NCBI GenBank assembly: GCA_016841065.1
Contig: JAENZW010000001.1
Coordinates: forward strand, 6,502-70,501
Source: Actinomycetota bacterium
Lineage (GTDB): Bacteria > Actinomycetota > Coriobacteriia > Anaerosomatales > JAENZW01
DNA: 64,000 bases
Direction of reading: 5' to 3'
Position 1 is the first letter of the stretch, and every line of letters begins with the position of its first letter. The position numbers and the translations under genes are program-made. Below the pieces are notes generated by a model. That model had not been told where the DNA came from. It saw only the letters and a program-made list of their open reading frames with translations, and made no database searches. Positions 27,072 through 41,125 of the stretch are shown one piece after another.

Positions 27072-27095
27072 CGTGCCGCAGTTCAGGCCTCGAGC

Positions 27096-27815
27096 CTACA
27101 CCTCTAGCGACGGTAGATACCGCCCGAGCCACGCCATGACCTCGGCGAGCCGTCCCGTCAACAGCAACGCGCCGATTGCCACGAGGAGCACGCCAGCAAA
27201 ACGATTGATGCCCTTCGAGTGGCGGGACAACCACCTGAGCAATGGGGTGACCTTGTTCAGGAGCAGGCTGGTCGCAACGAAGGGCAACGCAAGACCGAGA
27301 GAGTACACGAACAGGAGCCAGGCGCCCTGTGCGGCAGTCTCCCTCGTTCCGGCGAGCATCAGAATGGGACCGTACACCGGTCCCGCACACAGACCCATGG
27401 CCAGCGGAAACGCAAGTCCGAGCACGAAAGCTGCCACCGGCCCGAAGCGCCGGAATCGCGCAGCGTCGACGGACACACCGTGAAGCCACGGAATAGGGAG
27501 CACGTCGATAAGGATGATGCCGAGGAGTATCAGCGCAACGCCGATGACCCCGTCCAGCAGCGTCCGGTTGGACTCGAAGAACGAGCCGAGCACCGACGCG
27601 CTCGCGCCAAGGCCGACGAACACAATCGTGAAGCCGGCGACGAAAAGGAGCACCGGTCCCAGAATTCGCGCGATGCTGCGATCCTCCGCGGTGAGCTCGG
27701 TCAGAGACATCCCTGTCATGAAAGCGATGTACACCGGCACGAGCGGCAAGACGCACGGCGTGAGAAATGACAGGAGTCCAGCGACGAATGCCGCAGCTGG
27801 CCCTACATCCATCAA
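27096..27815 (-). CDS. ccdA: cytochrome c biogenesis / thiol-disulfide electron transporter CcdA (DsbD-family TM domain)
   Basis: 239-aa polytopic ORF with the FLTPCVLPLVPVYI motif (first conserved Cys) and a second Cys in GLCAGPVYGPI. Confidence 0.85.
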   Translation of the reverse strand: MMDVGPAAAFVAGLLSFLTPCVLPLVPVYIAFMTGMSLTELTAEDRSIARILGPVLLFVAGFTIVFVGLGASASVLGSFFESNRTLLDGVIGVALILLGIILIDVLPIPWLHGVSVDAARFRRFGPVAAFVLGLAFPLAMGLCAGPVYGPILMLAGTRETAAQGAWLLFVYSLGLALPFVATSLLLNKVTPLLRWLSRHSKGINRFAGVLLVAIGALLLTGRLAEVMAWLGRYLPSLEV

Positions 27816-27904
27816 AGTACCTCCAACATCAGAAACCGGTCTGAGTCGCCGAAGCGCCTCCGGAACTGTGTGGTCACCGGGCGCGTCGACTCTGGTGCAG
27901 TTTG

Positions 27905-27933
27905 AGTATACCCATGGGGGTATCGCATGACAA
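27905..27933 (-). promoter_or_regulatory. sigma-70-type promoter of ccdA with embedded CsoR-family-type operator
   Basis: Minus strand TTGTCA (27933..27928), 17-nt spacer, TATACT (27910..27905). The spacer contains ATACCCCCATGGGTAT (27908..27923). The 20-nt string tatacccatgggggtatcgc (27907..27926) is identical to 41025..41044. Confidence 0.65.
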
Positions 27934-27964
27934 ATCCCCTGCTGCGTTGCGACTGAGCATTAGT

Positions 27965-30604
27965 CTAGCGGAGTGTCGGCCTGAACCGGCGCAACAGCAG
28001 TGAGTTGGTCACAACGCTGACACTCGAGAACGCCATCGCCGCACCGGCCAGCCACGGTGCGCGTGACAGCAGACCGATCGCCGCAAGCGGAATGCCCAGC
28101 ATGTTGTAGCCGAGCGCCCACACGAAGTTTGCGCGTATCTTGCGCATCGTTGCCCGTGAGAGTTCGACCGCAGTGACCACGTCGCGAAGGTCGTTTCGAA
28201 TCAACACGACACCACCGGTCTCCATCGCGACATCGGTTCCGGCACCCATCGCGATGCCGACGTCCGACTGCGCAATCGCCGGCGTGTCGTTGATGCCGTC
28301 GCCAACCATGGCGACCTTGTTGCCCTCCTGCTGCAAGCGCTTGACCTCTTCGGCCTTGCGCTCGGGGAGGACTTCCGCGAGCACGCGGTCAGCAGATATG
28401 CCCGCCTGCGCAGCCACTGCCTCCGCTGTGCGGCGATTGTCACCCGTGATCATGTAGGCTTCGATGCCCATGCGAGACAGACGTGCGACAGCGTCGGCGC
28501 TATGCTCCTTGAGAGTGTCGGCGACGGCGAGAAGTGCTACGGCCGCGCCATCAACACCCAGGAACATCACCGTCTTGCCGTCGCACTCCATCGCAGACAC
28601 GCGCTCCTCGTACGCTGCGGCATCGACACTCTCCCGCTGCATCAAGGCCCGGTTGCCGAGCAAGACTCTTGCGCCCTGTACGATTCCCTCAACACCGTGT
28701 CCGGGTACGGCCGAGAAGCCCTCGACCGGCAGCAGCTCTGCTCCAGCCTCCTTCGCGGCAGCAACTATCGCCTCCGCCAGCGGATGCTCGCTCCCACGTT
28801 CAAGCGATGCGGCAAGCAGGAGTGCCTCTTCGGAAGGGATGGTGCCCAGCGGTTCGACATCGGTCACAACCGGCGCCCCGTACGTCAGGGTGCCTGTCTT
28901 GTCGAACACGATCGTACGGATCGACTCCGCTGTTTCGAGCGCTTCTCCACCCTTGATCAGGACGCCAAGCTCGGCACCTCTGCCCGTCCCCACCATGATT
29001 GCCGTGGGCGTGGCCAGGCCGAGTGCGCACGGGCACGCTATGACGACCGTTGCCGTGGCCGCAAGAAGGGCCGCAACGAACCAGCCGCTCGATGCCGCCG
29101 CGCTCAGTATCGGATGAAGTAGCGTAGCAGCGGCCCCGACATCCGGCACAGCGCCGAAGATCGCCGGTCCGGCGAAGAACCAGAACAAGAATGTAGTTGC
29201 CGACGTCGCCAGAACGACGGGAACAAACACGGCGCTTATTCGATCAGCGAAACGCTGAACAGGTGCCTTGGAACCCTGCGCATCTTCTACCAGCTTGATG
29301 ATCTGCGCGAGCGCGGTGTCCCTCCCGACTTTCGTAGCCCGGAACGTGAACGAACCGAGTTTGTTGACGGTCGCACCGATAACACCGTCGCCCTCGTTCT
29401 TCTCGACAGGAATCGACTCGCCGGTGAGCATGGATTCGTCGACGGCCGACGATCCCCGGGCAACCGTGCCGTCCACTGGAATCTTCTCGCCGGGCCGAAC
29501 GAGAACCAGGTCCCCTACGACGACCTGCTCCACCGGGATGTCGATCTCTTCGCCGCCGCGAAGCACTCGCGCCGTCTTGGCGGCTAGCCCCATGAGCTTC
29601 CGGATGGCATCGCCCGTGCGGCCCTTGGCCCTCGTTTCGAGCATCTTGCCGAAGAGGACGAAGGTGATGAGCAGCGCGCTCGTCTCGTAGAACACCGGCT
29701 CGCCTGTCAACCAGAACGTCGCAACCACGCTGTAAGCGAATGCGGCCGACGTGCCAACGGCGATGAGCGTGTCCATATTGCCCGTACGGCGCTGCAGGGC
29801 ATGCCAGAAACCGCGGTAGTACTGGGCTCCCGCGTAGAACTGAACCGGTGCGGCGAGGGCAAGCATGATGTACTTGTGCACCATCATCACCGCAGCCTCA
29901 CCTTCGAGGCCCAGCAGGCCGGCGACCCACATGGGAATCGCCTCCATGAACGGAGGGACCATCGCGATGAAGAACAGCGGGATGGCAAGAGAGGCGGAGA
30001 GCGTCAGCAGATTGCGCTGGTGGACGTAGTGCCGCTTCTGCGCCTGTCGCTGGACGTCGCGAGCGTCTGTCGAGCCGGGAGCGGAATCCTCAACGAGGAC
30101 GGTCGCCCCGTACCCCGCACCCTTGATGATCGTGATGATCTCGTCCGGGCCGATCACTGTCGGATCGATCGTGACAGTGGCACGCTCAAGTGCGAGATTG
30201 ACCACGGCCTGCTCGATTCCGGGCTGGCGCTGCAAGGTCTTCTCGACGACAGCGACGCATGAGGCGCACGTCATCCCTGTTACGGCCAGTGTCACAGTCC
30301 CCGAGACGCTCGCCGTGGCATTCTCCACGAGCTCCGTGGCGCCATAGCCAGCCGACTTGACCTTCGCGACGATCTCCGCGACATCTAGAACGGCCGGATC
30401 GTAGCGTACGTTCAGTCGCTCAGCAGCCAGGTTGACCGAGGCATCGTCGACGCCTTCGGCCTTGCCCAGGGTCTTCTCGATCACCGCAGCGCACGATGCG
30501 CAGGTCATGCCTGTTACGGCGAATGTTGCTTCTCGTTCCGCCGTGGCCGAATCCGTAGATGGCTCGTCTTGCCGAATCGTGTCGGTAGCATCTATGTCGC
30601 CCAT
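27965..30604 (-). CDS. copA: copper-translocating P1B-type ATPase with two N-terminal HMA domains
   Basis: ORF track 27965..30739. Start trimmed to ATG 30604 because the longer form overlaps the upstream gene. Two GMTCASC metal-binding domains, a CPC motif ([11 protein letters not shown]), DKTGTLT and GDGINDTPA. Confidence 0.92.
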
Positions 30605-30698
30605 GTCACGGGTCCTCAATCGCCGGCGTGCTCTCACTGAGACGCGCCGAATATGGTCGGTATCGAATACCTCGCGCGAACCGGAACCGCAGGCGCCG

Positions 30699-31259
30699 CT
30701 ACTGGACGACGAGCGTCCCGAAGACCATCTCCATGCCACAGGAGAAGCCGTACGTTCCTGGCTCCAGCGCTGGCAGGGTCACAGTCGCGCCGCCGTTCGT
30801 GAGGTCTTCCAGAACACCGAACTGCGGGAACTGAACCTCGGCAAGACAGCCGCTCCCCTGTCCGAAGACGATCTCGATGGGCACGCCGGACTTCGCCGTG
30901 ATCGCGTTCGGGTTGAAGGATCCTTGCGAGACGTCGACCGCGATGCGCTGGACGCCTGCATCAAGCACCGTCGCGCCCTCGATGGTCTCCGTCGATCCTC
31001 CGCAGCACGAGCCGCCTTCCGCGTCTCCGCATGCAGCGCTACCCGAGCTTCCGCCGGAGCGGTCAACTGCGGCTCCCTGGGCACCGTTGCCGGTCCCACG
31101 AGATTCTGCGATCGCTATCTGAGGGTTGCCGGCGCGCTGCGAAGCGAAGCCGTACGCCACTCCGAAGGCAAGAACCACAATGACTCCGATAAGCAGCAAC
31201 CGCGTTCGCGAATTCGTCGTGTATGCAGACTGTGAGATGGGCTCCTGATCTTCGGTCAT
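30699..31259 (-). CDS. membrane-anchored cupredoxin_1-like domain protein
   Basis: Start trimmed to ATG 31259 (GAGAGGA SD). One TM, a Cys/Gly-rich linker ([14 protein letters not shown]), then ...[16 protein letters not shown]...[18 protein letters not shown]. It is paralogous to the C-terminal domain of the 31590..32870 product. Confidence 0.75.
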
Positions 31260-31284
31260 GCTCGCGTGATCCTCTCTTCGTGGG

Positions 31285-31506
31285 CTATGCCTCGGAGGCC
31301 TCGTAGCCGGCGGCGCGAACTGCGCCGACGATTGCCTCCACGTCAACGGCTTCGGCATCGAACTCGACAACCGTCTCGCCCGTCGCGTAGTCCGTCTTCA
31401 CTTCCTTCACCCCGTCGAGATCCCCGACGGTCATGTCGACGAGCATAGCGCACGAATGGCAGTGCATGCCCGTCGTCTGAAGCTTGACCTGCTTCGACTC
31501 ACTCAT
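31285..31506 (-). CDS. copZ: heavy-metal-associated (HMA) domain copper chaperone
   Basis: Start trimmed to the ATG at 31506 (AGGAGG 7 nt upstream). Translation MSESKQVKLQTTGMHCHSCAMLV..., a ferredoxin-like HMA fold with an M-x-C-x-x-C variant (MHCHSC). Confidence 0.85.
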   Translation of the reverse strand: MSESKQVKLQTTGMHCHSCAMLVDMTVGDLDGVKEVKTDYATGETVVEFDAEAVDVEAIVGAVRAAGYEASEA

Positions 31507-31558
31507 TCCCATTCCTCCTGGCCCTAGGTGGCTCGTTGGGCTCTTCTTCGGCAACATA

Positions 31559-31574
31559 TGCGAGGCTCATGCCA
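31559..31574 (-). promoter_or_regulatory. sigma-54 (-24/-12) type promoter upstream of copZ
   Basis: Minus strand cTTGGCATgagccTCGCAtat. GG and GC are spaced exactly as in TGGCAC-N5-TTGCA, with two mismatches (C to T at -24, T to C at -12). It lies 53 nt upstream of the copZ ATG, in the 83-nt gap after the DsbD_2 gene. Confidence 0.55.
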
Positions 31575-31589
31575 AGAATCGGTCAGCCG

Positions 31590-32870
31590 CTAGTTTGCAG
31601 CCCCGCCGAGAAGATACCCAGCAATGACGGCGGCAACCACCGCGCCGACAGCGAGCGCTAGCTCGGCTTGCGTCAACCCCAGGATGCGAGGCACGCTCGC
31701 CGCGACCGCTCGCGAGTCGGCCGGACACGAATCGCCCGATCGCGACCTGCTCTTTCGCGTCAACGAATAGCCGACGATCGCCACCAGCAAGCCCCCGATG
31801 CCCAGACCCAGCAACGGGCTGCCTGAAATACCGGACGCAGCTTCGCCCGCAATGATTCGCCCAGACATCATCCCCATGCCGCATGTCAGTGTGTAGCTGC
31901 CTTGCGGCGTCGCCGGCAGGTCGACCACTGTCGTGTCGAAGGGCTTCAGGTCTTCGAGAACTCCCATCTGCGGAACGGCTATCTGATCGGAGCACGCGTT
32001 GTCTTCCCGCCGCTCGACCAACAGCCTCACAGGCCTGTCCGCCGGCACCTGGAGCACTTGGGGCACGAACCGCGTGTTCTCTATCAGGAGCGAAACCTCC
32101 GCGACGCCATCTTCGGCAACCTTGAAATCGAGAGGGCCCGCTTCCGGTGCGCCCAGGACGACCTGTTTGGCAGACTGAAAGGTGATTGGCGAGCCAACGA
32201 GCATCGACCCACGGTCGAAGACCACGAGCCCGAGGGCGATGACAACGACCGCAGCTGCGAGAGTCATGCGCTTCTTGAACGTGGAACCGAGATAGCCAGA
32301 TCCGACACCCATCACGATCATCAGCGGGGCCGTGCCCAGACCGAACCCGAGCATCGCGGTCGCGCCGGCGATGGCGCTTCCCGTTCCCGCCGCCGAGAGT
32401 TGAGCTGCCTGCAGTGGCGCACAGGGCATCAGGCCCGTGAGGAGACCGAATGTGATGGGGGTGGCAATCCGCACGCCTCCCGCCTTGGCTTCACTCATTG
32501 CCTTCCGGCGGTTCTTCGCAATGGCGTCCGTGAGAGCCTTCGGTGGCTTGAGGGTGAGCCGTCGTAGCAGGGGAAACCGGCCAGTCATGTTGATGCCCAG
32601 CACTACCATGAAGAGGCCAGCGAACAACATCACCCATCCGCGAATCCCCGCCAGATCGAAGGCTGCCCCGATCGCTCCGAGCACGAGTCCTACCGTGACG
32701 TAGCTGAGGATCTTTGCGGCCTGGTAGGCGGCATGCGGCTTCAGGCGGTCCATAAGAGGCCCGTCGACGCCGTCTTTGACGGCGTAGGTCACTACGATGG
32801 CACCGCACATGAAGACACAGTGCACGCTGGTGACCAGACCCAGTCCCAGCATGGTAAGGAAGCTGTCCAA
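31590..32870 (-). CDS. DsbD_2 / TauE-SafE-like membrane protein fused to a cupredoxin_1-like domain and a C-terminal TM tail
   Basis: ORF track 31590..32999. Start trimmed to TTG 32870 (GGAG 6 nt upstream; ATG 32852 is an alternative). SVHCVFMCG motif in TM1, about 6 TM helices, then ...NACSDQIAVPQMGVLEDL...GSYTLTCGMGMMSGRII. Confidence 0.75.
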   Translation of the reverse strand: MDSFLTMLGLGLVTSVHCVFMCGAIVVTYAVKDGVDGPLMDRLKPHAAYQAAKILSYVTVGLVLGAIGAAFDLAGIRGWVMLFAGLFMVVLGINMTGRFPLLRRLTLKPPKALTDAIAKNRRKAMSEAKAGGVRIATPITFGLLTGLMPCAPLQAAQLSAAGTGSAIAGATAMLGFGLGTAPLMIVMGVGSGYLGSTFKKRMTLAAAVVVIALGLVVFDRGSMLVGSPITFQSAKQVVLGAPEAGPLDFKVAEDGVAEVSLLIENTRFVPQVLQVPADRPVRLLVERREDNACSDQIAVPQMGVLEDLKPFDTTVVDLPATPQGSYTLTCGMGMMSGRIIAGEAASGISGSPLLGLGIGGLLVAIVGYSLTRKSRSRSGDSCPADSRAVAASVPRILGLTQAELALAVGAVVAAVIAGYLLGGAAN

Positions 32871-32881
32871 CCGTCGCTCCT

Positions 32882-33244
32882 CTATATGTTGTGGAAGTCC
32901 GGTGACGACAACGGTAGCTGCGTGTCGCACTCGAGCAGGGCCCCGCAGTGTGGACACATGCGCCAGTCTGTCAGGATGGAGCCACCGCACGCTGCGCACT
33001 CGGAGGTCGCCACAGGAGTCTCGTCCTCCCGCTCATCACTCGACCTGCCGCCCAGAAGCACCAACGTGATGGCGCCAATCAGAATCCCCGCGACCAGAGG
33101 AACCAGCCACCCAAGCCGTGCGAAGGCACTCTGAGAGTCTGCGTACGTGCCCTCCGCGGCGAAGAACCACGCCGCGAGACCACCCGCCAGCGCGAACGCC
33201 AGCGAGGCAATCAGAGCGAGTCTCTTCGTACGAACTTGGCGCAT
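32882..33244 (-). CDS. small membrane protein with a C-terminal zinc-ribbon (CxxC...CxxC)
   Basis: ORF track 32882..33493. Start trimmed to ATG 33244 because the longer form overlaps the EBP gene. Two TM helices, then SECAACGGSILTDWRMCPHCGALL. First gene after the sigma-54 promoter. Confidence 0.6.
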   Translation of the reverse strand: MRQVRTKRLALIASLAFALAGGLAAWFFAAEGTYADSQSAFARLGWLVPLVAGILIGAITLVLLGGRSSDEREDETPVATSECAACGGSILTDWRMCPHCGALLECDTQLPLSSPDFHNI

Positions 33245-33284
33245 GTGGGCCACCCAGGAGGAGGACGCAGGTGGCCAGAGAAGT

Positions 33285-33300
33285 TGCAAGGGCTGTGCCA
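33285..33300 (-). promoter_or_regulatory. sigma-54 (-24/-12) promoter, full consensus match
   Basis: Minus strand cTTGGCACagcccTTGCAa, which is TGGCAC-N5-TTGCA. It sits in the 68-nt gap between the NtrC-type activator gene and the Zn-ribbon gene, 41 nt upstream of ATG 33244. Confidence 0.8.
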
Positions 33301-33312
33301 AGAAACCGGACT

Positions 33313-34662
33313 CTACAAGCCGAGGCGATTCATGCGAGCCTCGAGCGTCTTCGTGGTGAGTCCGAGGAGCTTCGCAGCCTTGGGCGCGTTGCCCCCTGCC
33401 CTGCTCAGCGCCTGGCGCACGAGATCGAGTTCCACTTCCTCCAGATCGCAACCCTCTTCGGGGAGTGACATCCCCGTCTGCGAGCTCTCGCAAGAGGACG
33501 CGCCCAGTCTAACCTCTGCCGGAAGGTCCGCGAGCGTGACCACATCGCCCGGGGCGAGAATCAAGATGCGCTCGATCGTGTTCTCGAGCTCGCGAATGTT
33601 GCCTGGCCACCTGTATGTAGCGAGAGCCTCCATGGCCTCTGAAGAGATCTTCCGCTCTCCGGCGTTCAACTTCTCAAGGAAGTGCGCCACCAGGAGAGGG
33701 ATGTCACTCATTCTCTGCCGCAGGGGCGGTATCTGCAGGGGCACCACGTTCAGGCGGTAGTAGAGATCCTCCCTGAACATTCCGTCAGAGATGAGTTGCT
33801 GGAGATCCTGGTTCGTCGCGGCGATCACGCGAACATCCACCTCAATGGTACGTGTGCCACCCAGCCGCTCGAACTCGCGCTCCTGCAAAACGCGCAGAAG
33901 CTTGACCTGAGTTGCCAGGGAGATGTCCCCGATTTCATCGAGGAACAGCGTCCCGCCGTTTGCCAGCTCGAAGCGTCCGGGTTTCGCCGCCATCGCCCCG
34001 GTGAAGGCACCCTTCTCATAGCCGAACAGCTCACTCTCGAGGAGCGTCTCGGGGAGCGCTCCCGCGCTCACCGACACGAACGGCTCGTCCGCACGTTGGG
34101 ACAGCGCGTGCAACGCTCGCGCGACGAGCTCCTTGCCAGTGCCTGACTCCCCATAGATGAGGACTGTTGCGTTCGTGGGTGCGACCCTGTGAACGGAGTC
34201 GAGCAGTTCGAGCATCGCAGAATCCGCCGCAACGATTCCCTCGACGTCGTACTCCTTGTCGATTTCCTCGCGTAGGCGCTCGACCTCCGCCGCGAGGTTG
34301 CCTATCCGGATCGCTTTGTCGATGGCGATCTTGAGTTCCTCGAGATCAAACGGTTTCGTCAGATACTCCGTTGCCCCCGCCTTCATGGCCTCTACCGCGA
34401 GCGCAACGTTCCCGTGCGCCGTCAGCATGATGATGGGGAACGTGTGGCCGTCGGCGCGCAGTCTCCGCAGCACTTCCATGCCATCGGGCGCTGGCATCTT
34501 GTGATCGAGGACGAGGATATCGGGGATCTGATCGGACACCGAGGCGATAGCCTCCTTGCCATCCACCGCCTGGACGACTTCGAATCCCTCACCCTCAAGC
34601 GCCTGTGCGAGAACCCAGCGCATGTTCTTCTCGTCGTCGGCGACAAGCACCCGTCGCTTCAT
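33313..34662 (-). CDS. sigma-54-dependent response regulator (NtrC/ZraR-type enhancer-binding protein)
   Basis: 449-aa ORF. REC domain (VLVADDE...LVLDHKMP), AAA+ domain with Walker A (GESGTGKE) and the GAFTGA loop (ESELFGYEKGAFTGA), and a C-terminal HTH (GGNAPKAAKLLGLTTKTLEARM). Confidence 0.92.
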   Translation of the reverse strand: MKRRVLVADDEKNMRWVLAQALEGEGFEVVQAVDGKEAIASVSDQIPDILVLDHKMPAPDGMEVLRRLRADGHTFPIIMLTAHGNVALAVEAMKAGATEYLTKPFDLEELKIAIDKAIRIGNLAAEVERLREEIDKEYDVEGIVAADSAMLELLDSVHRVAPTNATVLIYGESGTGKELVARALHALSQRADEPFVSVSAGALPETLLESELFGYEKGAFTGAMAAKPGRFELANGGTLFLDEIGDISLATQVKLLRVLQEREFERLGGTRTIEVDVRVIAATNQDLQQLISDGMFREDLYYRLNVVPLQIPPLRQRMSDIPLLVAHFLEKLNAGERKISSEAMEALATYRWPGNIRELENTIERILILAPGDVVTLADLPAEVRLGASSCESSQTGMSLPEEGCDLEEVELDLVRQALSRAGGNAPKAAKLLGLTTKTLEARMNRLGL

Positions 34663-36215
34663 TCGCTCACTCCTCGATCGATTGCGTGTTCTTCGGACAC
34701 CGGAATCTCAACAATGAACGTAGTCCCATCCGAGGTGCTGTCGACTTCGATATGCCCATCATGAGCGTCGATGATTCGGTGCACGATCGTCAGCCCGAGC
34801 CCGGTTCCATCATCCCGTGTGGAGTAGAAGGGATCAAAGATCTTGCCTGTGGCTTCGGGTGGAATGCCGGGGCCGGTGTCGGCTACTACTACCTGCACGT
34901 AGTCCTCGTCGTACGAGGAGGAGAGTGTTATCTCCCCTCCTTCCACTTCCATCGCCTGCACAGCGTTGGTCACGAGGTTCAAGAACACCTGCTTGAGTTG
35001 GTCGGGGTCGGCAACGACATCCGGCAGGCTACCGTCGTACTCCTCGATGATCCTAACGCTCGCCTGCTTCGCAAATCGCTTGGTGAATAGCACGACATCC
35101 CGAAGAACGTCCTCCACGTCGGTGCTCACGAACGTAGGCTTCGAGGGTCTTCCGAAGTCAAGAAGTGCCTTGATGACCCGATCGAGTCGGTCGATCTCCT
35201 GCTTGACTATGTCAGTTGCCTCTCTCATCCGCTCATGATCGCCGCCAGCCTCTTCAATCAGCTGCACAGACGCACGAATGATCCCGAGCGGGTTCCTGAC
35301 CTCGTGGGCTACGCCAGCGGTCAGCTCTCCCATTGCGGCCAGGCGATCAGCGCGAATCAGCTGCTCAGTAAGCGACTGAACTTCGGACATGTCCTCCATC
35401 GTCACAACCGCACCGAACGTGCGACCACCTACTGCGCGCATCCGAGACGTAGAGACCTGTACTTGCAGTTGTTTGCCACCCCGAGTTCGAATGCCGATCT
35501 CTCTCAACACGAGCGGTACACGCCCGGAGAGCACGCGTGTGAGATCCGAATCGAGGCCCCCGTCGTCGGCCAGAATCTGCACAAGCGGCTTGGGAACCAT
35601 CTCGTACTCGCTCATGCCAAGCATTCGCTCGGCAGCCGGATTCGCGGTCGCGACCGATGCGTCGGGCCCGACCGTCAGTACCGCGGAGGTGATGGAGCGT
35701 AGGATCGACTGTGTGTAGTCCTGGATGTTGATGAGCTGGATAGCCCGTTCCTCAAGCTTGCGGTATGCGTCCTCGAGGCGTTCACTCACCTGACGCAGGT
35801 CACGCGTCTTGCCTTCCTCCATATCGCGAAGCGCCCCGAACAGCGTGCCGATGATCACATACATGACGATTTCAAGGCCGTTGTCGGCGTGCTCGCCAGT
35901 GAGTCCTCCAAGGGCCATCTGCGCGTGCATGCCGAAGGGAATCGCCGCGGCGAGCGCCGTCAGGAAGCCGCCCCTCCTTCCGAAGACGAATGCCGCATAC
36001 AGGATCGGCACGTAGTAGAGACGACGGTAGAGGAGGTGAATCGCCGCACTCTCGGCTACAGAATCCGTATACAGATGTAGAGCCGTGACGACAAACAGCA
36101 TCGCGCCGATGATGGCGACAACGCGCAGGTCCTGAATACGATTGACCTCGTCGCGCTGGTCAACGACCGGACGACTCTCATCAGCAGCCGCTGTCACCGT
36201 CGCCTCCGAGCCCAC
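34659..36215 (-). CDS. sensor histidine kinase (N-terminal 4-TM domain, PAS, HisKA, HATPase_c)
   Basis: 518-aa ORF. H-box (ELTAGVAHEVRNPL), N-box (LVTNAVQAM), G1 (DTGPGIP) and G2 (GTGLGL). The stop overlaps the EBP ATG (ATGA). The start overlaps the rpoN 3' end (GTG 36215, or the GTGA overlap at 36197). Confidence 0.88.
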   Translation of the reverse strand: MGSEATVTAAADESRPVVDQRDEVNRIQDLRVVAIIGAMLFVVTALHLYTDSVAESAAIHLLYRRLYYVPILYAAFVFGRRGGFLTALAAAIPFGMHAQMALGGLTGEHADNGLEIVMYVIIGTLFGALRDMEEGKTRDLRQVSERLEDAYRKLEERAIQLINIQDYTQSILRSITSAVLTVGPDASVATANPAAERMLGMSEYEMVPKPLVQILADDGGLDSDLTRVLSGRVPLVLREIGIRTRGGKQLQVQVSTSRMRAVGGRTFGAVVTMEDMSEVQSLTEQLIRADRLAAMGELTAGVAHEVRNPLGIIRASVQLIEEAGGDHERMREATDIVKQEIDRLDRVIKALLDFGRPSKPTFVSTDVEDVLRDVVLFTKRFAKQASVRIIEEYDGSLPDVVADPDQLKQVFLNLVTNAVQAMEVEGGEITLSSSYDEDYVQVVVADTGPGIPPEATGKIFDPFYSTRDDGTGLGLTIVHRIIDAHDGHIEVDSTSDGTTFIVEIPVSEEHAIDRGVSE

Positions 36216-37594
36216 GAAGGCTCGATGCCGATCTCCTCGCGATACTTGGCAACGGTGCGACGGGCAACGGTAACGCCTTCCACGCGCAGAATCTCAACAA
36301 GCTTCTGGTCGGACATCGGATGCCGATCGTCCTCTTCGCGTACTAGTTCCTTGATGCGTTGCTTCACGCTCGTGGCCGCCACATCAAAGCCCGTCCGCGT
36401 TCTGTAGCCGCCCGAGAAGAAGTGCTTCAGTTCAAAGAGCCCGTATGGTGTGGCCATGTACTTTCCGGTAACGCCTCTGCTGATCGTTGAGAGATGTACC
36501 CCGAGTTCGACTGCAACATCCTCGAGCCTCAGCGGTCTCAGAAGGCCCCTTCCGTCCTCGAAGAACTCCGCCTGTACCTCCAGGACAGTCTGGGTGATGC
36601 GACTAACGGTGTCCTTGCGGCGATCGATATTCCGAATGAAGCTCTCAGCCGAGCGAATCTTGTCCTTCAGATACCGTTTGGTCTCGTCGTCAGTCCCCGA
36701 GCCCGTGCGGAGCATTCGACGATACCGTACGCTCACCCGCAGCGTCGGTATCGACTCGTTGTTCGGCGTGATAACCCACTCGTCGTCGAACCGCCGAATC
36801 GTCACATCCGGAACGATGTAGCCAGGCGAAGGGCCCGGCGAGAAAGCGCCGGCTGGACGCGGGTTGAGCGTCCGGAGAACCTCTACAACACGCCGCACCT
36901 CATCCTCGTCCGTCTTCAGAGACCGTGCGACCTTTCGGAAATGGCTCGCTGCGATGTCATCGAGGTGATTGCGTATGATTCCTTCCAGCAGAGGTTCTTC
37001 GAGCCCGAGGTACGTGGCTTGTATAAGAAGTGCCTCCGCCAGGTCACGGGCGGCCACACCGGGTGGGTCGAGGAGCTGGACTACCCCGAGGGCCTCCTCG
37101 GCCTCCTCGGGGGTAACGCCGACCTGCGCCGCGATCTCCGCGCAGTTGCCCACGAAGAACCCGTCGTCATCCAGCGATCCGATAACCGCGCGAGCCGCTC
37201 TGTCGACGCTCTCCGTGATGGTGATCAGCGCGAGCTGCTCGAGCAGGTACTCGTCGAAGGACTGAATGCCGCCGACAAACTCCTCGGTGTTCACCACATC
37301 CGCATTGGGATCGCGGGGAGCGCTGAGGTCCATCGACTCGAGATCGTCGTACATGTCGAGCCACTCTTCCCAGGCCTGATCTTCCTCGGAAGACTCATTG
37401 GGCTCATCATCACTCGCGGTCTCACTGTCGTCCGTGTCGGGCTCGTCGAGCTCGAGAACAGGGTTCTCAAGCATCTCGACCTCAACAAGCTGCTGGAGCT
37501 CGGCGATGGGCATAGCGAGTATGTTCAGACCCTGATAGACCTGCGGCGAGAGTGTTACCTTGTGCCGCAGCTCGGGTCGCTGGCTGAGCTCCAC
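36194..37594 (-). CDS. rpoN: RNA polymerase sigma-54 factor
   Basis: 466-aa ORF. Gln/Leu-rich region I (LSPQVYQGLNILAMPIAELQQLVEVEMLENPVLE), an acidic region II, and a C-terminal HTH plus RpoN box (ARRTVAKYRE). GTG start with GGGAGG upstream. Confidence 0.92.
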   Translation of the reverse strand: MELSQRPELRHKVTLSPQVYQGLNILAMPIAELQQLVEVEMLENPVLELDEPDTDDSETASDDEPNESSEEDQAWEEWLDMYDDLESMDLSAPRDPNADVVNTEEFVGGIQSFDEYLLEQLALITITESVDRAARAVIGSLDDDGFFVGNCAEIAAQVGVTPEEAEEALGVVQLLDPPGVAARDLAEALLIQATYLGLEEPLLEGIIRNHLDDIAASHFRKVARSLKTDEDEVRRVVEVLRTLNPRPAGAFSPGPSPGYIVPDVTIRRFDDEWVITPNNESIPTLRVSVRYRRMLRTGSGTDDETKRYLKDKIRSAESFIRNIDRRKDTVSRITQTVLEVQAEFFEDGRGLLRPLRLEDVAVELGVHLSTISRGVTGKYMATPYGLFELKHFFSGGYRTRTGFDVAATSVKQRIKELVREEDDRHPMSDQKLVEILRVEGVTVARRTVAKYREEIGIEPSWARRRR

Positions 37595-37714
37595 GTCTCG
37601 CCTCCCGTCGCGATGTGCACCCTATCCGGCCGCACCGCGGGCGCGGCCCCTAGCAAACTATATACCACCTCTTCCCTCATTCATGACGAAGCGTCGCCAG
37701 AATGTGCATCCCGG

Positions 37715-38686
37715 TCACGCGACTGGGGGTATCTGCTCCTCCAACCGAGACGATAGTTGGACCAGGAGGATGGCGGCCAGCACCACGACGCCTCCGACTA
37801 TCTGAAGTGCGTCGAATCTCTCCTGGAGCGTTGTCCAGGCGATGATCCCGGCCAACACGGGCTCAAGCGTCGATGTGACCACGGCCTTCGTCGCGTCAAT
37901 GTAGTGAAGCGCCTTGAGCGACGCTGCGAAAGGAACGATCGTGCCGACGAGACCCAGGTACACAACCGCGACGACTCCTGCGGTCGAACGATACGCATCG
38001 AGAATGGGCGCCCAGCCGCCAAGGTAGACGAGCCAGAAGACCGTGGCGAATCCAAGACCGTATGCGAGCAGAGTCCATGGCGAGAACCGCGTGGATGCCC
38101 ACTTGCCCATCAGTTGATAGAAGGCAAACACCACGGCAGCAGCAAGCCCCCAGGCCACGCCAGCGGGCGAAACCTCAAGGCCACCTTCGCCGAACGCGCC
38201 AACCACGAGCGCACAACCCCCTACCGAGAGGAAGACACCCACCGGCAGAACCCACGTCAGCTTCTCGGAGAGGAACAACACCGAGACGACGAGCACTATT
38301 ACCGGGGCAAGGTACTCCAACAGAACGGCAGTGGCCACGTTCGAATACGAGATCGCCTGATAGTAGGCAGCATGCAGTCCGGCCATTCCTACGACTCCGA
38401 AGACGGCGAGCACCGGGATGTCTCGGCGTGTCACCTTGAATGCTCGCGGTCGCCTTATGAGCAGGTAGACCGCCAGGAGTACGAACGCGGTCGCGGCCCG
38501 CGCCCCGGCCAGCGCGGTTGGGCTCATGGTGATGCCGGGGGGCTGAACGACCCAGCCTGACGTCATCTCGCCGGCTGGTGTCATGATCCACTTCGCGACG
38601 ACGCCACTCGTTGCCCAGCACGCAGCGGCGAGCGTCGCGAGTGCGTAGCCTCGCCACGTCTCTGATGCGCCATGACGCTCAGACAA
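37715..38686 (-). CDS. EamA/DMT-superfamily transporter
   Basis: ORF track 37715..38785. About 10 TM helices in two EamA repeats. Start trimmed to TTG 38686, which overlaps the CDF stop (cTTGTCTGA). The start is uncertain. Confidence 0.75.
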   Translation of the reverse strand: MSERHGASETWRGYALATLAAACWATSGVVAKWIMTPAGEMTSGWVVQPPGITMSPTALAGARAATAFVLLAVYLLIRRPRAFKVTRRDIPVLAVFGVVGMAGLHAAYYQAISYSNVATAVLLEYLAPVIVLVVSVLFLSEKLTWVLPVGVFLSVGGCALVVGAFGEGGLEVSPAGVAWGLAAAVVFAFYQLMGKWASTRFSPWTLLAYGLGFATVFWLVYLGGWAPILDAYRSTAGVVAVVYLGLVGTIVPFAASLKALHYIDATKAVVTSTLEPVLAGIIAWTTLQERFDALQIVGGVVVLAAILLVQLSSRLEEQIPPVA

Positions 38687-39623
38687 GTCCCGCGTCCATC
38701 TCTTCGGCAGTCTGCCGGGCTTCGTAGGCGTCGTACGGTTCCACGTGGGCGATGACATCCAACACCTGCGGAAACGCCTCCGCAACCGCGCGTTCGACGG
38801 TCTCGGCTATGGCGTGGGCAGCTTCCACCGGAATCGAGCCGTCGACCTGCACGTGCAGATCGACGTACACGTCTGTGGGTAGTCCGCGGGTACGCACACG
38901 ATGGCATCCGAGGACGCCAGGGACCGAGCACACGACCGCTGCTACCGCCGGTGGCGGAATGCGCACGCTGTCAGACAGAGTCTCTCCGGCCTGCCTGAAG
39001 ACCTGGAGCGCCGCGAAAGCGATGCTTACCGCAACGAGAAGTGCAATCACCGGATCCGCGATGGGATAGCCGAGACGAACCGCGACCAGACCAAGAATGA
39101 CACCGAGGCTCACATAGACATCGCTCATCGTGTGACTTGCGTCCGCAATGAGTATCTCGCTCCCGAGCCTCTTCCCCGCTCGACGCTCGAAGACGGTCAC
39201 ACCTGTGTTGACGCAGATGGTGCCGATCATGACGACGAACGAAATCGCGGTGACGTCTGCCGGCTCGACGCCTCGAACGAGCTCTCTGATCGCAGTACCA
39301 CCCACGTTGTAGGCGGCAACGGCTAGCATCGCGCCGATAGCGGCTGACGCGTACGTCTCGTACTTACCGTGTCCGTAGGGGTGGTCCCTGTCCGCCGGTC
39401 GACCGGCGAGCGCAAGGCCGAACAGCCCGATGACGTTTGATGTCCCATCGAACATCGAGTGGAAGCCGTCCGCCTGCATGGCCACCGACCCGGAGGCAAG
39501 ACCCCAGCCTAGCTTCGCCACAGCCACGAGCACGTTCAGGCCCAGAACGACCCAGAGCACGCGACGCACCGCTCGTGTGCGCTCGGAAGTGGTGGATTCT
39601 GACGATTGTCGTTGGTATCCCAT
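38679..39623 (-). CDS. cation diffusion facilitator (CzcD/ZitB-type) metal efflux transporter
   Basis: 314-aa ORF. Six TM helices with HSMFD (TM2) and HTMSD (TM5) metal-site motifs, and a C-terminal cytoplasmic domain. Confidence 0.88.
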   Translation of the reverse strand: MGYQRQSSESTTSERTRAVRRVLWVVLGLNVLVAVAKLGWGLASGSVAMQADGFHSMFDGTSNVIGLFGLALAGRPADRDHPYGHGKYETYASAAIGAMLAVAAYNVGGTAIRELVRGVEPADVTAISFVVMIGTICVNTGVTVFERRAGKRLGSEILIADASHTMSDVYVSLGVILGLVAVRLGYPIADPVIALLVAVSIAFAALQVFRQAGETLSDSVRIPPPAVAAVVCSVPGVLGCHRVRTRGLPTDVYVDLHVQVDGSIPVEAAHAIAETVERAVAEAFPQVLDVIAHVEPYDAYEARQTAEEMDAGLV

Positions 39624-39647
39624 TCGTCCACCCCGCGATAGACAAAC

Positions 39648-39681
39648 TTGCTCAGCATACCCCAGGGGGGTATAGTCTCAA
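39648..39681. promoter_or_regulatory. back-to-back sigma-70-type promoters (csoR-like gene / CDF gene) sharing one CsoR-family-type operator
   Basis: Plus strand: TTGCTC (39648..39653), 17-nt spacer, TATAGT (39671..39676). Minus strand: TTGAGA (39681..39676), 16-nt spacer, TATGCT (39659..39654). The inverted repeat ATACCCCAGGGGGGTAT (39657..39673) lies in both spacers. Confidence 0.6.
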
Positions 39682-39725
39682 TAGCCTGCCTGCCCATGAT
39701 AACCCCATTCGTCGAGGGAGCGATC

Positions 39726-40022
39726 ATGTCCGATGCCGTAGAAGCCGTCGCCGAGGATGATGAGAAGCGACGCATCGTCAATCGCCTGAAGCGGCTCGAG
39801 GGCCAGATTCGTGGATTGCAGACGATGATCGAGTCCGGCAAGGACTGCGAAGCCGTCCTCACTCAGATCATGGCAGCGAAATCCGCGCTCAACCAGGTCG
39901 GCATGCACATCATCGGCCACTCGATGAAGCGATGCCTCATCGATGACGAATCCAAGACGCGCGACGAACTCATCGATGAAGCGATTGCCGTGTTCCTGAA
40001 GTACTCGGCCTGCATCAAGTAG
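39726..40022 (+). CDS. CsoR/RcnR-family (DUF156) metal- or thiol-sensing transcriptional repressor
   Basis: ORF track 39648..40022. Start trimmed to ATG 39726 (GAGGGAG SD). RIVNRLKRLEGQIRGLQTMIESGKDCEAVLTQIMAAKSALNQVGMHIIGHSMKRCL is the typical family core, with Cys, His and Cys candidates. Confidence 0.85.
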   Translation: MSDAVEAVAEDDEKRRIVNRLKRLEGQIRGLQTMIESGKDCEAVLTQIMAAKSALNQVGMHIIGHSMKRCLIDDESKTRDELIDEAIAVFLKYSACIK

Positions 40023-40031
40023 GGACTCGCG

Positions 40032-40430
40032 TCAAGCGACTACTTCGTCGACCATCCCTGTTACGGTGCGCTCAAACTCCTCCGACACCTCGTCGAGTTC
40101 ATGCTCGGGAAACACCGCACGCCACAGGGTGGGCCTGAGCGCGGCAACGACAATCCCCTGGTTCTCCTCCTCATAGACGTTGATTCTGCACGGCAACATC
40201 AACGAGACTGGATCGTTGGCGTTGTGTTCCTCAGGCGCAATCTCAAAGATGACGAGCGGGCGAATCGGAAAACCCTTCGCCGCCAGAGCGGCAGTGATGT
40301 CGTAGCGGTTCAACACGACAAAGCCGTGGTCGCGTACAACTCGCTCCACGGCTCCCAGGGTCTCAGCGAAGGTCCCCTTGCCTTGCCGCCGATAGGCGTA
40401 GTCCACACAGCCCCCATCCCTGCACTCCAC
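40032..40430 (-). CDS. DUF302 domain-containing protein
   Basis: 132-aa ORF. FAETLGAVERVVRDHGFVVLNRYDITAALAAKGFPIRPLVIFEI matches the DUF302 pattern as I recall it. Confidence 0.7.
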   Translation of the reverse strand: MECRDGGCVDYAYRRQGKGTFAETLGAVERVVRDHGFVVLNRYDITAALAAKGFPIRPLVIFEIAPEEHNANDPVSLMLPCRINVYEEENQGIVVAALRPTLWRAVFPEHELDEVSEEFERTVTGMVDEVVA

Positions 40431-40448
40431 CGGAGTGCGTCGCTATGC

Positions 40449-40652
40449 TCAACCAAACGCCCCGGGTCCGCACGTCCGAGACCCCCGGGAGTCGGACCCG
40501 GAACCCGTCCCGAGAATCCCGCCGCCGAATCCGACACCGACGTTCACGGAACCGCACTTGGGACAGATCTTGTCATCGTCACGCAGTAGGCGCATGACGA
40601 ACCTGTCGAACTTCTCTCCGCAATCCTTACACGTGAGGTCGTAGGTAGGCAA
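40449..40652 (-). CDS. FmdB-family zinc-ribbon protein
   Basis: 67-aa ORF, MPTYDLTCKDCGEKFD...CPKCGS, followed by a Gly-rich tail. This is the canonical FmdB/CxxC-x-CxxC layout. Confidence 0.8.
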   Translation of the reverse strand: MPTYDLTCKDCGEKFDRFVMRLLRDDDKICPKCGSVNVGVGFGGGILGTGSGSDSRGSRTCGPGAFG

Positions 40653-40655
40653 CGA

Positions 40656-40979
40656 CTACGCCTCAAGTCCGAGCTCGGACACAAGCGCGTCCGCTCCGCG
40701 CGCACCGACCACCTGAGCAACGACGCTGCCTCGCTCAAACTTGGCGATTGTCGGGATACTCATCACTCCGTACTGCACTGCGACGTCACGGCTCTCGTCT
40801 ACATTCACCTTCACGAACTTCACCGATTCGCCCATGCGCGAAGCAAGCTTCTCGATTTCAGGTCCCACTATTCGACATGGCCCACACCATGGAGCCCAAA
40901 AATCCACGACTACGGGGGTTGTGGCGTCGAGGACCTCGGATGCGAACTCCTCCGTGGAAACGTTCTTCACTTCACTCAT
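40656..40979 (-). CDS. trxA: thioredoxin
   Basis: 107-aa ORF with the WAPWCGPC active site. Confidence 0.93.
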   Translation of the reverse strand: MSEVKNVSTEEFASEVLDATTPVVVDFWAPWCGPCRIVGPEIEKLASRMGESVKFVKVNVDESRDVAVQYGVMSIPTIAKFERGSVVAQVVGARGADALVSELGLEA

Positions 40980-41022
40980 CGATACTCCTCAAGTGTCTCA
41001 GGGGCGCAACTTCACAGCGCTC

Positions 41023-41051
41023 ATTATACCCATGGGGGTATCGCTAGTCAA
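41023..41051 (-). promoter_or_regulatory. sigma-70 consensus-like promoter of trxA operon with embedded CsoR-family-type operator
   Basis: Minus strand TTGACT (41051..41046), 17-nt spacer, TATAAT (41028..41023). The spacer contains ATACCCCCATGGGTAT (41026..41041). Confidence 0.7.
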
Positions 41052-41125
41052 ACAACGTACCCGCACAATTCCTTCCCCAGACGGTATCATTCACTCACTG
41101 CCACTGGGCAGAAAGGCAACAAGGC

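Follow-up and report, generated by a model that had tools for sequence, protein, structure and literature searches.

The DNA analysed here, referred to below as the window, is a stretch of 64,000 nucleotides of contig JAENZW010000001.1 from an Actinomycetota bacterium of the Coriobacteriia (Anaerosomatales). It contains a gene for a repressor of the CsoR family, together with three copies of a palindromic operator, each embedded in a promoter region and one of them overlapping the promoter of the repressor gene itself. With high confidence, the arrangement is that of one autoregulated CsoR-family repressor acting through three promoter-embedded operators on four transcription units, which encode thioredoxin with a Zn-ribbon and a DUF302 protein, the thiol-disulfide transporter CcdA, the repressor, and a CDF metal exporter with an EamA transporter. 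Annotation commonly presents members of the CsoR family as copper or 'metal-sensitive' regulators, and every database name of this protein does the same. The residue pattern and contexts described below point to an effector that modifies thiols (persulfides, polysulfides or other thiol oxidants), a reading to which a probability of about 0.6 is given.

Genes, operators and promoters of the locus

On the minus strand the window carries, in this order, genes for a PP2C(SpoIIE)/GAF/HAMP phosphatase, CcdA, a group made up of CopA, a cupredoxin, CopZ, a DsbD_2-cupredoxin fusion and a small transmembrane (TM)/Zn-ribbon open reading frame (ORF), then a sigma-54 activator, a histidine kinase, RpoN, the EamA transporter and the CDF exporter. 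These are followed by the CsoR-family gene on the plus strand, by the DUF302, FmdB Zn-ribbon and thioredoxin (trx) genes on the minus strand and by a gene for a membrane-anchored chelatase-like protein on the plus strand (Table 1). The gene identities proposed in an earlier sequence-only reading of the window all agree with Pfam (DsbD_TM/CcdA, thioredoxin, Zn_ribbon_8/FmdB, DUF302, Cation_efflux with ZT_dimer, EamA, Trns_repr_metal, and an E1-E2 ATPase with HMA domains). For the CDF exporter the best NCBIfam model is the Zn efflux protein Cdf31 (238 bits, below the cut-off of 460), the DmeF model giving 41.7 bits against a cut-off of 250. The ccdA and PP2C phosphatase genes are probably co-transcribed, and the true start of EamA probably lies later than position 38785. 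Neither a second CsoR paralogue, nor trxB, nor an extracytoplasmic thioredoxin-like partner for CcdA was found in the window.

The search for ATACCC-N1-6-GGGTAT across the window gave three exact matches, as against none in 100 dinucleotide-preserving shuffles and about 0.02 expected by chance at the base composition of the window (our own estimate), so that the inverted repeat reported in the sequence-only reading is confirmed at its exact positions. No further credible copy appeared in the window when the search was relaxed to two mismatches. Sites 1 and 3 have the 16-bp form, ATACC-N6-GGTAT, and share, as had been stated, an identical 20-nt string, tatacccatgggggtatcgc, while site 2 has one additional central base. 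The same ATACC-N6-GGTAT sequence is bound by the Streptomyces repressor ScCsoR (C37/C66), as defined by electrophoretic mobility shift assays; that repressor is autoregulated and is released by polysulfide (PMC7533328).

An independent scan of positions 27000-42000 for the sigma-70 consensus returned three promoter-like sequences only, each carrying a palindrome: those of ccdA and trx, and a candidate for the CDF gene. The promoter of the csoR-like gene, which operator 2 overlaps, falls under the -35 threshold of the scan and is hence absent from its list. The palindromes had been described as lying within the spacers of four -35/-10 pairs. All four promoters are indeed present, but the palindrome is not confined to the spacer: it fills it, and its promoter-distal TAT provides the first three nucleotides of the -10 hexamer.

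Table 1. Positions of the operators, promoter elements and genes discussed in the text.
Feature	Position	Strand	Sequence or elements	Basis or remark
Operator 1, 16-bp form, ccdA promoter	27908..27923		ATACCCATGGGGGTAT	exact match
Operator 2, 17-bp form, common to divergent csoR-like and CDF genes	39657..39673		ATACCCCAGGGGGGTAT	exact match
Operator 3, 16-bp form, trx promoter	41026..41041		ATACCCATGGGGGTAT	exact match
ccdA promoter	27905..27933	-	-35 TTGTCA 27933..27928, N17, -10 TATACT 27910..27905	scan, 10/12 match; begins 32 nt past copA stop codon
trx promoter	41023..41051	-	-35 TTGACT 41051..41046, N17, -10 TATAAT 41028..41023	scan, 11/12 match
csoR-like gene promoter (autoregulatory)	39648..39676	+	-35 TTGCTC 39648-39653, N17, -10 TATAGT 39671-39676	read from sequence
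Candidate CDF promoter	39681..39654	-	TTGAGA-N16-TATGCT	scan
-10-like hexamer of CDF strand in csoR leader	39701..39696	-	TATCAT	
-10-like hexamer of chelatase-like gene	41085-41090		TATCAT	conserved; about 45 nt past operator
Sigma-54-type promoter	33285..33300	-	TGGCACAGCCCTTGCA	sole perfect TGGCAC-N5-TTGCA in window
Weaker sigma-54-type site	31574..31559	-	TGGCAT-N5-TCGCA	consensus match
Sigma-54-type element between EamA and rpoN	37652-37667	-	TGGTATATAGTTTGCT (GG-N10-GC)	about 60 nt 5' of rpoN
CsoR-family repressor, 98 aa	39726..40022	+	x-C41-S66-C70 plus invariant H61, C96	Pfam PF02583
Thioredoxin, first gene of operator-controlled operon	40656..40979	-	WCGPC	Pfam Thioredoxin 5.2e-30; TIGR01068 113.4 bits against cut-off 96.8
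FmdB-family zinc-ribbon protein, trx operon gene 2	40450..40652	-	CxxC..CxxC	Pfam Zn_ribbon_8; TIGR02605
DUF302 protein, trx operon gene 3	40032..40430	-		Pfam DUF302
CDF metal exporter, divergent from repressor gene	38679..39623	-	HxxxD/HxxxD site	Pfam Cation_efflux and ZT_dimer
EamA/DMT-family exporter, 3' of CDF gene	37715..38785	-		Pfam EamA
CcdA-type DsbD_TM thiol-disulfide transporter	27096..27815	-	both conserved Cys kept (TPCVLP, GLCAGP)	Pfam DsbD_TM/DsbD_2
Membrane HAMP-GAF-GAF-PP2C (SpoIIE) phosphatase, 24 nt 3' of ccdA	23781..27071	-		Pfam
CopA	30739..27965	-		
CopZ	31506..31285	-		
Copper operon part with DsbD_2-cupredoxin fusion and second cupredoxin-like protein	30699-32999	-		
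Small TM/Zn-ribbon ORF, 120 aa	33244..32882	-		
Histidine kinase and sigma-54 activator	33313-36215	-		
rpoN	36194-37594	-		
Chelatase-like protein, 410 aa	41126-42358	+		

Conservation of the sites and of the gene set in related genomes

The nearest database relatives of the regulator (73-88% identity) belong to uncultured Coriobacteriia, some of them labelled Anaerosomatales. Starting from the regulator alignment, 80 species-level Coriobacteriia loci were collected, each with a flank of +-10 kb (1.38 Mb in total), and an exact TACCC-N2-7-GGGTA was taken as a site. Synteny is strongly kept over these loci, where genes for thioredoxin (69 loci), the FmdB Zn-ribbon protein (58), the DUF302 protein (57), the CDF exporter (74) and EamA (75) recur, and where the PP2C phosphatase follows ccdA in 47 relatives.

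The sites are found at the same places. Between the CDF and csoR-like genes there is one in every relative (80/80), always with a core of 15 nt; upstream of trx it is present in 67 of 69, always with a core of 14 nt; and upstream of ccdA in 38 of 58, the core varying from 14 to 16 nt. The ccdA gene is therefore a facultative member of the regulon. Only four matches lie elsewhere in the 1.38 Mb, two of them upstream of a cupredoxin-ccdA unit or a DUF302 operon, against some ten expected by chance (our own estimate); thus, the three classes of site are hugely enriched, and there is no sign of further targets nearby.

The promoters have been kept along with the sites. When the relatives are aligned on the site, information content reaches about 2 bits only in the -35 TTG, in ATACCCC..GGGGTAT and in the A-N-T that completes the -10, the flanks remaining near 0. 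The trx promoter keeps the geometry TTGACA-N5/6-ATACCCC-NN-GGGGTAT-A-N-T, the csoR-like promoter its -35 TTGC and -10 TATAnT in the 80 relatives, and the ccdA promoter its layout. A dispersed repeat was considered and rejected, the repeat being just 16-17 bp long and fixed at orthologous promoters while its flanks diverge. The pattern is the signature of a transcription-factor site with a CsoR-family gene as its constant neighbour. Together with the match to the ATACC-N6-GGTAT operator (PMC7533328), this footprint in 80 genomes strongly supports the proposal, made in the sequence-only reading, that the repressor of the window would co-regulate ccdA, the trx/Zn-ribbon/DUF302 operon and CDF-EamA.

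The promoter of the CDF gene is less clear. The TTGAGA-N16-TATGCT proposed earlier is present in the window and was recovered by the scan, but its -35 scores at least 4/6 in just 16 of 81 sequences; it was set aside as a conserved element and may serve in this genome only. Further upstream on the CDF strand, in the csoR leader and 18-28 nt past the operator, a -10-like TACAAT, TAGAAT or TATCAT (the last in the window) reaches a 5/6 match in 45 of 81 sequences, often with a TTG-containing -35. With either promoter, operator 2, which stands 33 nt before the CDF start codon, lies within or just 3' of it, and repression is expected, be it by occlusion or as a roadblock.

The 5' leader of the csoR-like gene shows, across L001-L080 (the relatives' loci), a conserved element, ATGATACCCC, ATTGTACGCC or ATTGTAGGGC, whose spacing from the operator varies. 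On the other strand it reads GGGGTATCAT or GGCGTACAAT, a -10-like hexamer after a half-operator-like G tract; it may serve as an auxiliary half-site, or the actual promoter of the CDF gene may lie here.

The chelatase-like protein next to trx begins with a membrane region, and its C-terminal domain weakly resembles ferrochelatase/CbiX (Pfam 2e-11, far under the NCBIfam cut-offs); in 76 of 80 relatives its gene adjoins trx or lies directly 3' of the csoR-like gene. Its inclusion as a further target of operator 3, a fourth one, is unsupported: among the loci that lack trx and retain the chelatase-like gene, 7 of 8 also lack the site, and the gene has a conserved -10-like hexamer of its own.

Neither the exact nor the relaxed search placed a palindrome before any copper gene of the window. 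The perfect sigma-54-type promoter lies just 3' of the sigma-54 activator gene and heads the small TM/Zn-ribbon ORF, followed by the DsbD_2-cupredoxin gene, and the weaker site precedes CopZ, cupredoxin and CopA. The sequence-only reading had placed copA behind sigma-54 promoters 0.1 kb upstream of the ccdA promoter. The consensus sites are there and an operator is not, but it is the 3' end of copA that comes within about 0.1 kb, the sigma-54 promoters being 3.6 and 5.4 kb upstream. A transcript running on from copA towards ccdA would come upon the operator 32 nt past the copA stop codon. Copper genes are rare in the relatives' loci (CopA 3/80, cupredoxin 7/80, DsbD_2 fusion 5/80). The sigma-54 promoter with the small ORF after the activator gene is kept in 63 of 65, and in most of the relatives ccdA comes directly after the small ORF. 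The copper genes have thus been inserted, as an accessory set, where a conserved sigma-54 unit adjoins the conserved operator-controlled ccdA promoter, and the 'two-tier wiring' that had been noted exists in this genome as a local feature but does not belong to the system.

Several observations concern this neighbouring region. The small ORF encodes 1-2 TM helices and a C-terminal CxxCG...WRxCPxCG zinc ribbon, without any Pfam or NCBIfam match, and is probably the primary target of the sigma-54 two-component system. The copper operon encodes two unusual extracytoplasmic components: a 469-aa ORF in which a DsbD_2 membrane domain is fused to a cupredoxin-like domain, and a second cupredoxin-like protein with a Cys/Gly-rich linker. 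RpoN, a PAS histidine kinase and an NtrC-type activator make up a complete sigma-54 system, which is core to the lineage and syntenic in 67-75 of the 80 loci; sigma-54 is generally described as absent from Actinobacteria. Upstream of rpoN, TGGTAY-N5-TTGCW is kept in 68 of 73 relatives, and this element could reflect autoregulation of the rpoN-kinase-activator operon or could be an extended -10 promoter (TGnTAnnnT) overlapping a sigma-54 site.

Residue pattern and wider contexts of the repressor

Membership of the family is clear, the repressor matching PF02583 (Trns_repr_metal) over residues 13-90 with 89.1 bits (gathering score 22.8). Solved chains of CsoR, CstR, InrS and FrmR match it at E values between 1e-12 and 1e-5, solved CstR (PDB 7MQ1-3) at 2.2e-11. 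Overall similarity was discarded as a guide to the effector, all four kinds of chain being found at 1e-12 to 1e-9. The same holds for profile scores, which overlap between metagenomic x-C-x-C (49-60 bits) and x-C-H-C proteins (43-51 bits). The NCBIfam models all score under their cut-offs, the best being RicR (52 against 175 bits), with FrmR at 42.9 (against 133) and RcnR at 36.3 (against 138).

The residues at the ligand positions (W, X, Y and Z) are more informative. Cu(I) sensors have the pattern x-C-H-C, and no Cu(I)-sensing cluster departs from this His or from the second-shell allosteric Tyr that precedes the first Cys; Ni/Co sensors have an N-terminal His, FrmR has Pro2, and persulfide sensors are x-C-x-C (PMC8643695). 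In the repressor of the window, S66 aligns with the Cu-ligand His (H75) of the CsoR of Geobacillus (G. thermodenitrificans), and D40 precedes C41, giving the 'DC' motif of CstR and not the 'YC' of copper sensors. Over 32 aligned relatives C41, H61, C70 and C96 are invariant, Ser or Ala occupies position Y throughout, Cys41 is preceded by Asp or Glu, and His65 varies between His and Tyr. The N-terminus (MSD, MTD or MAD) is variable, with no conserved His in residues 1-12 and without Pro2. Cys41 and Cys70 are 29 residues apart, the same spacing as between C37 and C66 of ScCsoR and between C39 and C68 of TTHA1953 of Thermus thermophilus.

With respect to copper, His at Y and Tyr before the Cys at X are both missing, and copA and copZ are not under the operator. 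The N-terminal His at W and the His at Y of RcnR, DmeR and InrS are absent as well, and so is the Pro2 of FrmR. The features of the CstR type are those that are found: a dithiol 29 residues apart, no His at Y, no ligand at W, and an operator of the ATACC-N6-GGTAT type on the regulator's own promoter. To judge from its residues, the repressor would thus not be a copper-type CsoR but a protein with the dithiol fingerprint of persulfide and redox sensors plus an invariant C-terminal Cys, and the designation of copA as its 'classical target' in the sequence-only reading could not be sustained.

The clade is narrow, since 1.8 billion cluster representatives, searched exhaustively with HMMER, contain just 10 at E<=1e-30. 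The nearest 30 or so 50%-cluster representatives are all x-C-(A/S/T/R)-C, many with a C-terminal Cys, and Y-C...H-C types occur only at lower scores. Among the nearest representatives there are also tandem two-domain CsoR fusions of 160-234 aa (P0121-P0126, P0130), both halves of which are x-C-x-C, the C-terminal Cys being retained in the second half only; such a covalent 'dimer' of the fold is unusual.

The connection with thioredoxin extends beyond the lineage. The nearest sister clade, from Thermoleophilia (about 50% identity), has the same C-terminal FLKYxxC, and its regulator gene is preceded by the same promoter-operator, TTGC-N-GTACCC-N2-GGGGGTAT-ACT. In two of four species contexts this gene overlaps trxB (TIGR01292, 368 and 373 bits against a cut-off of 343), and in two of the four contexts (L133, L137) EamA is divergent from it. 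Therefore, taken over both lineages, the clade goes with trxA or trxB and with an EamA exporter, and not with copper genes. Directly 5' of the csoR-like-trxB operator-promoter of two of the Thermoleophilia (L133, 6780-6860; L135, 6790-6865), a tRNA-like sequence was read by eye.

A precedent exists in TTHA1953, the repressor of an operon led by the thioredoxin SoxW, which oxidation releases and Cu, Ni and Co do not (PMC10318464). Furthermore, protein persulfides are reduced by thioredoxin-like proteins (PMC6196236). In the literature that was searched, control of trxA or trxB by a member of the CsoR family is not reported. The Anaerosomatales in culture are obligate anaerobes; they use S0/thiosulfate or Fe(III) for respiration and possess multihaem c-type cytochromes (PMC9686372); with this lifestyle, the cytochromes are an obvious client of CcdA, and exposure to polysulfide would be a normal condition.

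The regulons of other organisms were sampled by searching metagenomes for the combined promoter and operator, TTGAC-N6-ATACCCC-NN-GGGGTATA, which matched 49 contigs. The genes downstream encode thioredoxin of the same lineage (7), CsoR-family proteins (6), MBL-rhodanese fusions (3), rhodaneses (2), CoADR-like reductases (2), a YgaP-like membrane protein (1), DUF302 (1, in L105), DUF59 Fe-S assembly proteins (3) and small Cys-rich ORFs (7). Six of the contigs (L088, L100, L110, L122, L094 and L118) have, directly behind the promoter-operator, ORFs of 64-77 aa with C-x2-C...TTW-x-GCG-x-H...C-x-C and without Pfam match, those of L094 and L118 near an x-C-G-C CsoR-family gene; such ORFs may be an unrecognised member of dithiol-CsoR regulons. 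As for DUF302, elsewhere it accompanies sulfur clusters of cst-like and SQR-like kind: a Sporosarcina plasmid has it beside a CsoR-family gene and DsrE/rhodanese/TusA/MBL genes, and an annotated plasmid of Methylocella within an ArsR-DUF2892-FAD oxidoreductase cluster. On a Halorubrum plasmid it lies among plastocyanin-like genes. In Arthrobacter plasmids it belongs to a CsoR-family sulfur (SUL) module (PMC6305408).

Proposed mechanism, rival explanations and relation to known systems

In the proposed mechanism the reduced 98-aa repressor, presumably as a tetramer, would sit on ATACCC(C)-N-GGGG(G)TAT, covering the spacer together with the initial three positions of the -10, so that RNA polymerase would be excluded from trx-Zn-ribbon-DUF302, from ccdA (with the PP2C phosphatase) and from the repressor's own gene, while divergent CDF-EamA transcription would be blocked from the shared site. 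The sensor would be a dithiol switch and not a Cu(I) site: modification or cross-linking of Cys41/Cys70' by persulfides, polysulfides or other thiol oxidants would lead to release from the DNA. Cytoplasmic thioredoxin, the CcdA channel, a Zn/Co-type CDF pump and the EamA exporter would then be made together, CcdA passing the electrons of thioredoxin to the outside of the membrane, and fresh reduced repressor would close the loop.

This assignment of the effector is favoured because of the residue fingerprint, the gene content, the sister-clade link with trxB and the precedents, taken together. Several facts weigh against it. The genes that typically surround CstR (for rhodanese, persulfide dioxygenase, SQR, CoADR and TauE) are absent from the window and from the 80 loci, therefore a specific role for persulfide is unsupported by the gene content. 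Rhodanese, MBL-rhodanese, CoADR-like and YgaP proteins were searched for in both with phmmer (single-sequence queries, of limited sensitivity), and between 23.8 and 44.4 kb none of the 17 genes is assigned by Pfam to a persulfide-detoxification family. The most constant partner gene is that of the CDF metal exporter, a partner that would ordinarily suggest a metal as the effector; the ccdA operator of this window directly abuts the copper operon; and the trxB link of the sister clade was seen in just two of the four contexts. Moreover, CstR-like dithiols are able to bind Cu(I) in vitro (PMC8643695), and the invariant C96 together with His61 could complete a metal site. Finally, the CsoR-family proteins encoded on the metagenome contigs are of two kinds, with Y=Gly (dithiol) and with Y=His (copper-type); the operator type is therefore common to both, and the effector cannot be identified from the operator.

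Among the rivals, an ordinary Cu(I) sensor of the CsoR/RicR type comes first, although it is unlikely. Cu(I) bound at Cys41/Cys70', with Cys96, His65 or His61, would release the DNA, and thioredoxin, CcdA and the exporters would repair copper damage, complementing the sigma-54-driven CopA, CopZ and cupredoxin. The operator is of the actinobacterial CsoR/RicR type, RicR is the best if sub-threshold NCBIfam match, the ccdA operator follows copA in the window, one relative (L003) has a site before its cupredoxin-ccdA unit, DUF302 stands amid plastocyanin-like genes in Halorubrum, and reductant export of the DsbD/ScsB type aids copper tolerance in other bacteria. However, copA and the cupredoxins (5-7/80) are rare in the relatives' loci, no operator precedes the copper genes of the window, and the alternation of His65 with Tyr shows that it is not a conserved ligand. 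All over the clade, and in its nearest neighbours too, Ser/Ala stands where the Cu-ligand His would be and Asp in place of the second-shell Tyr, although both are reported as conserved in every Cu(I)-sensing cluster (PMC8643695).

A divalent-metal sensor, for Zn/Cd or for Co/Ni as in DmeR-DmeF, is quite improbable. Its main target would be the CDF exporter, trx and CcdA riding along since thiophilic metals deplete thiols. The CDF gene, with its HxxxD/HxxxD site and a Zn-efflux model as the nearest, is the constant divergent partner (74/80, with the operator in 80/80), the pairing of a CsoR-family repressor with a CDF is the known Ni/Co arrangement of DmeR-DmeF, and the invariant C41, H61, C70 and C96 could form a Cys3His-like site. 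Nevertheless, there is no conserved N-terminal His (W) and no His at Y or Z, and the literature surveyed describes no Zn-sensing member of the family. Besides, sister-clade members occur without CDF and with trxB and/or EamA, and several relatives (L011, L017, L070) retain the operator and EamA without a CDF gene.

That the palindromes belong to some other regulator or are just a repeat that goes with promoters, the csoR-like gene being near by coincidence, is highly improbable: the link between protein and DNA is indeed indirect, and the TAT ends double as -10 bases, so that their conservation is partly that of the promoter, but the C/G tracts, which are not promoter elements, are conserved as strongly as the -10, the site accompanies the regulator gene in all 80 relatives and in the sister clade, it matches the experimentally defined operator of the family, and the window has a single CsoR-family gene.

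Compared with known systems, the predicted repressor goes with CstR, ScCsoR and TTHA1953 in sequence and operator, but not in gene neighbourhood. A close likeness is to ScCsoR (SCO0620 of S. coelicolor) and the actinomycete 'cluster 3' CstR-like proteins, which have the Cys pair 29 residues apart, no Cu-ligand His, autoregulation, and ATACC-N6-GGTAT over promoters, with several operators making up a small regulon (PMC7533328, PMC8643695). Their regulon, however, serves the oxidative removal of sulfane sulfur (persulfide dioxygenase, rhodanese, a TauE exporter), and none of these genes is nearby here, where the targets are thioredoxin, CcdA, CDF/EamA, DUF302 and the Zn-ribbon protein and where the repressor has an extra C-terminal Cys (FLKYSxC) and Ser/Ala at Y.

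CstR of S. aureus, E. faecalis and S. pneumoniae shares the x-C-x-C pattern, in which Asp precedes the Cys at X, and the mechanism expected from it is an interprotomer di-, tri- or tetrasulfide cross-link that leads to DNA release. Unlike the repressor of the window, it has an Asn 'wedge' at Y, a regulon of sulfurtransferases, CoA-persulfide reductase, persulfide dioxygenase and SQR, and hosts among the Firmicutes; no report of CstR control of trxA, ccdA or CDF was found in the literature surveyed. TTHA1953, with its C39/C68 dithiol, is bound to DNA only when reduced, is indifferent to Cu, Ni and Co, and acts at a divergent promoter whose first gene is SoxW, a CcdA gene lying at the end of the cluster; its operator, TACNNTACNNNNGTANNGTA, is without C/G tracts, its regulon is that of periplasmic Sox thiosulfate oxidation, and its CcdA gene is not derepressed in the mutant (PMC10318464).

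Among metal-responsive relatives, DmeR-DmeF and RcnR-RcnA likewise join a CsoR-family repressor to a CDF (DmeF) or other metal exporter through a promoter with a C/G-tract palindrome, whereas their H-C-H-H ligands (N-terminal His plus Cys/His/His) appear absent here and the CDF of the window scores far below the DmeF cut-off. In the RicR/CsoR copper regulons of Mycobacterium and Streptomyces, one small repressor acts at several dispersed operators overlapping the -10. The operator there is of the same type, and the likeness of the binding sites has been noted (PMC7533328), but those repressors are x-C-H-C Cu(I) sensors with copA, copZ, metallothionein and multicopper oxidase as targets, while the repressor here lacks their His and Tyr and the adjacent copper genes are without operator.

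Outside the family, thiol-based switches that induce thioredoxin-system genes under disulfide stress are known in SigR-RsrA (Streptomyces), SigH-RshA and Spx. Their logic differs, being that of sigma/anti-sigma pairs or of an activator binding RNA polymerase, as against a simple repressor of CsoR fold. A CsoR-fold thiol switch with the thioredoxin system, CcdA and exporters as its output is, on balance, the favoured description of the locus. More speculative, and on the whole doubtful, is its broadest extension, by which the clade would act as master regulator of thiol redox (disulfide/persulfide stress) in the deep-branching Actinomycetota (OPB41/Anaerosomatales-type Coriobacteriia and Thermoleophilia), in place of SigR-RsrA or Spx. 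A three-Cys switch (C41, C70, C96) would then couple, by one operator code, thioredoxin or thioredoxin reductase, the export of reducing power by CcdA, the efflux of Zn or thiol metabolites, and the PP2C phosphatase. If so, it would be the first CsoR-family regulator dedicated to the thioredoxin system, and not to metal, formaldehyde or sulfur oxidation.

For the family, the clade described here is well delimited and spans more than 80 uncultured species in which the copper site has been lost and operators stand on thioredoxin-system promoters, and it advises caution: neither the name of the family nor the sequence of the operator is by itself a ground for inferring copper regulation. If the proposed reading is true, reductive thiol repair with export of reducing equivalents would be a new output of the family, beside Cu, Ni/Co, formaldehyde and sulfur oxidation, and the compact pair of operator and repressor would offer a predictable three-promoter regulon that is directly testable in vitro. 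For the organisms, it would point to how anaerobic sulfur- and iron-respiring actinobacteria sense thiol stress.

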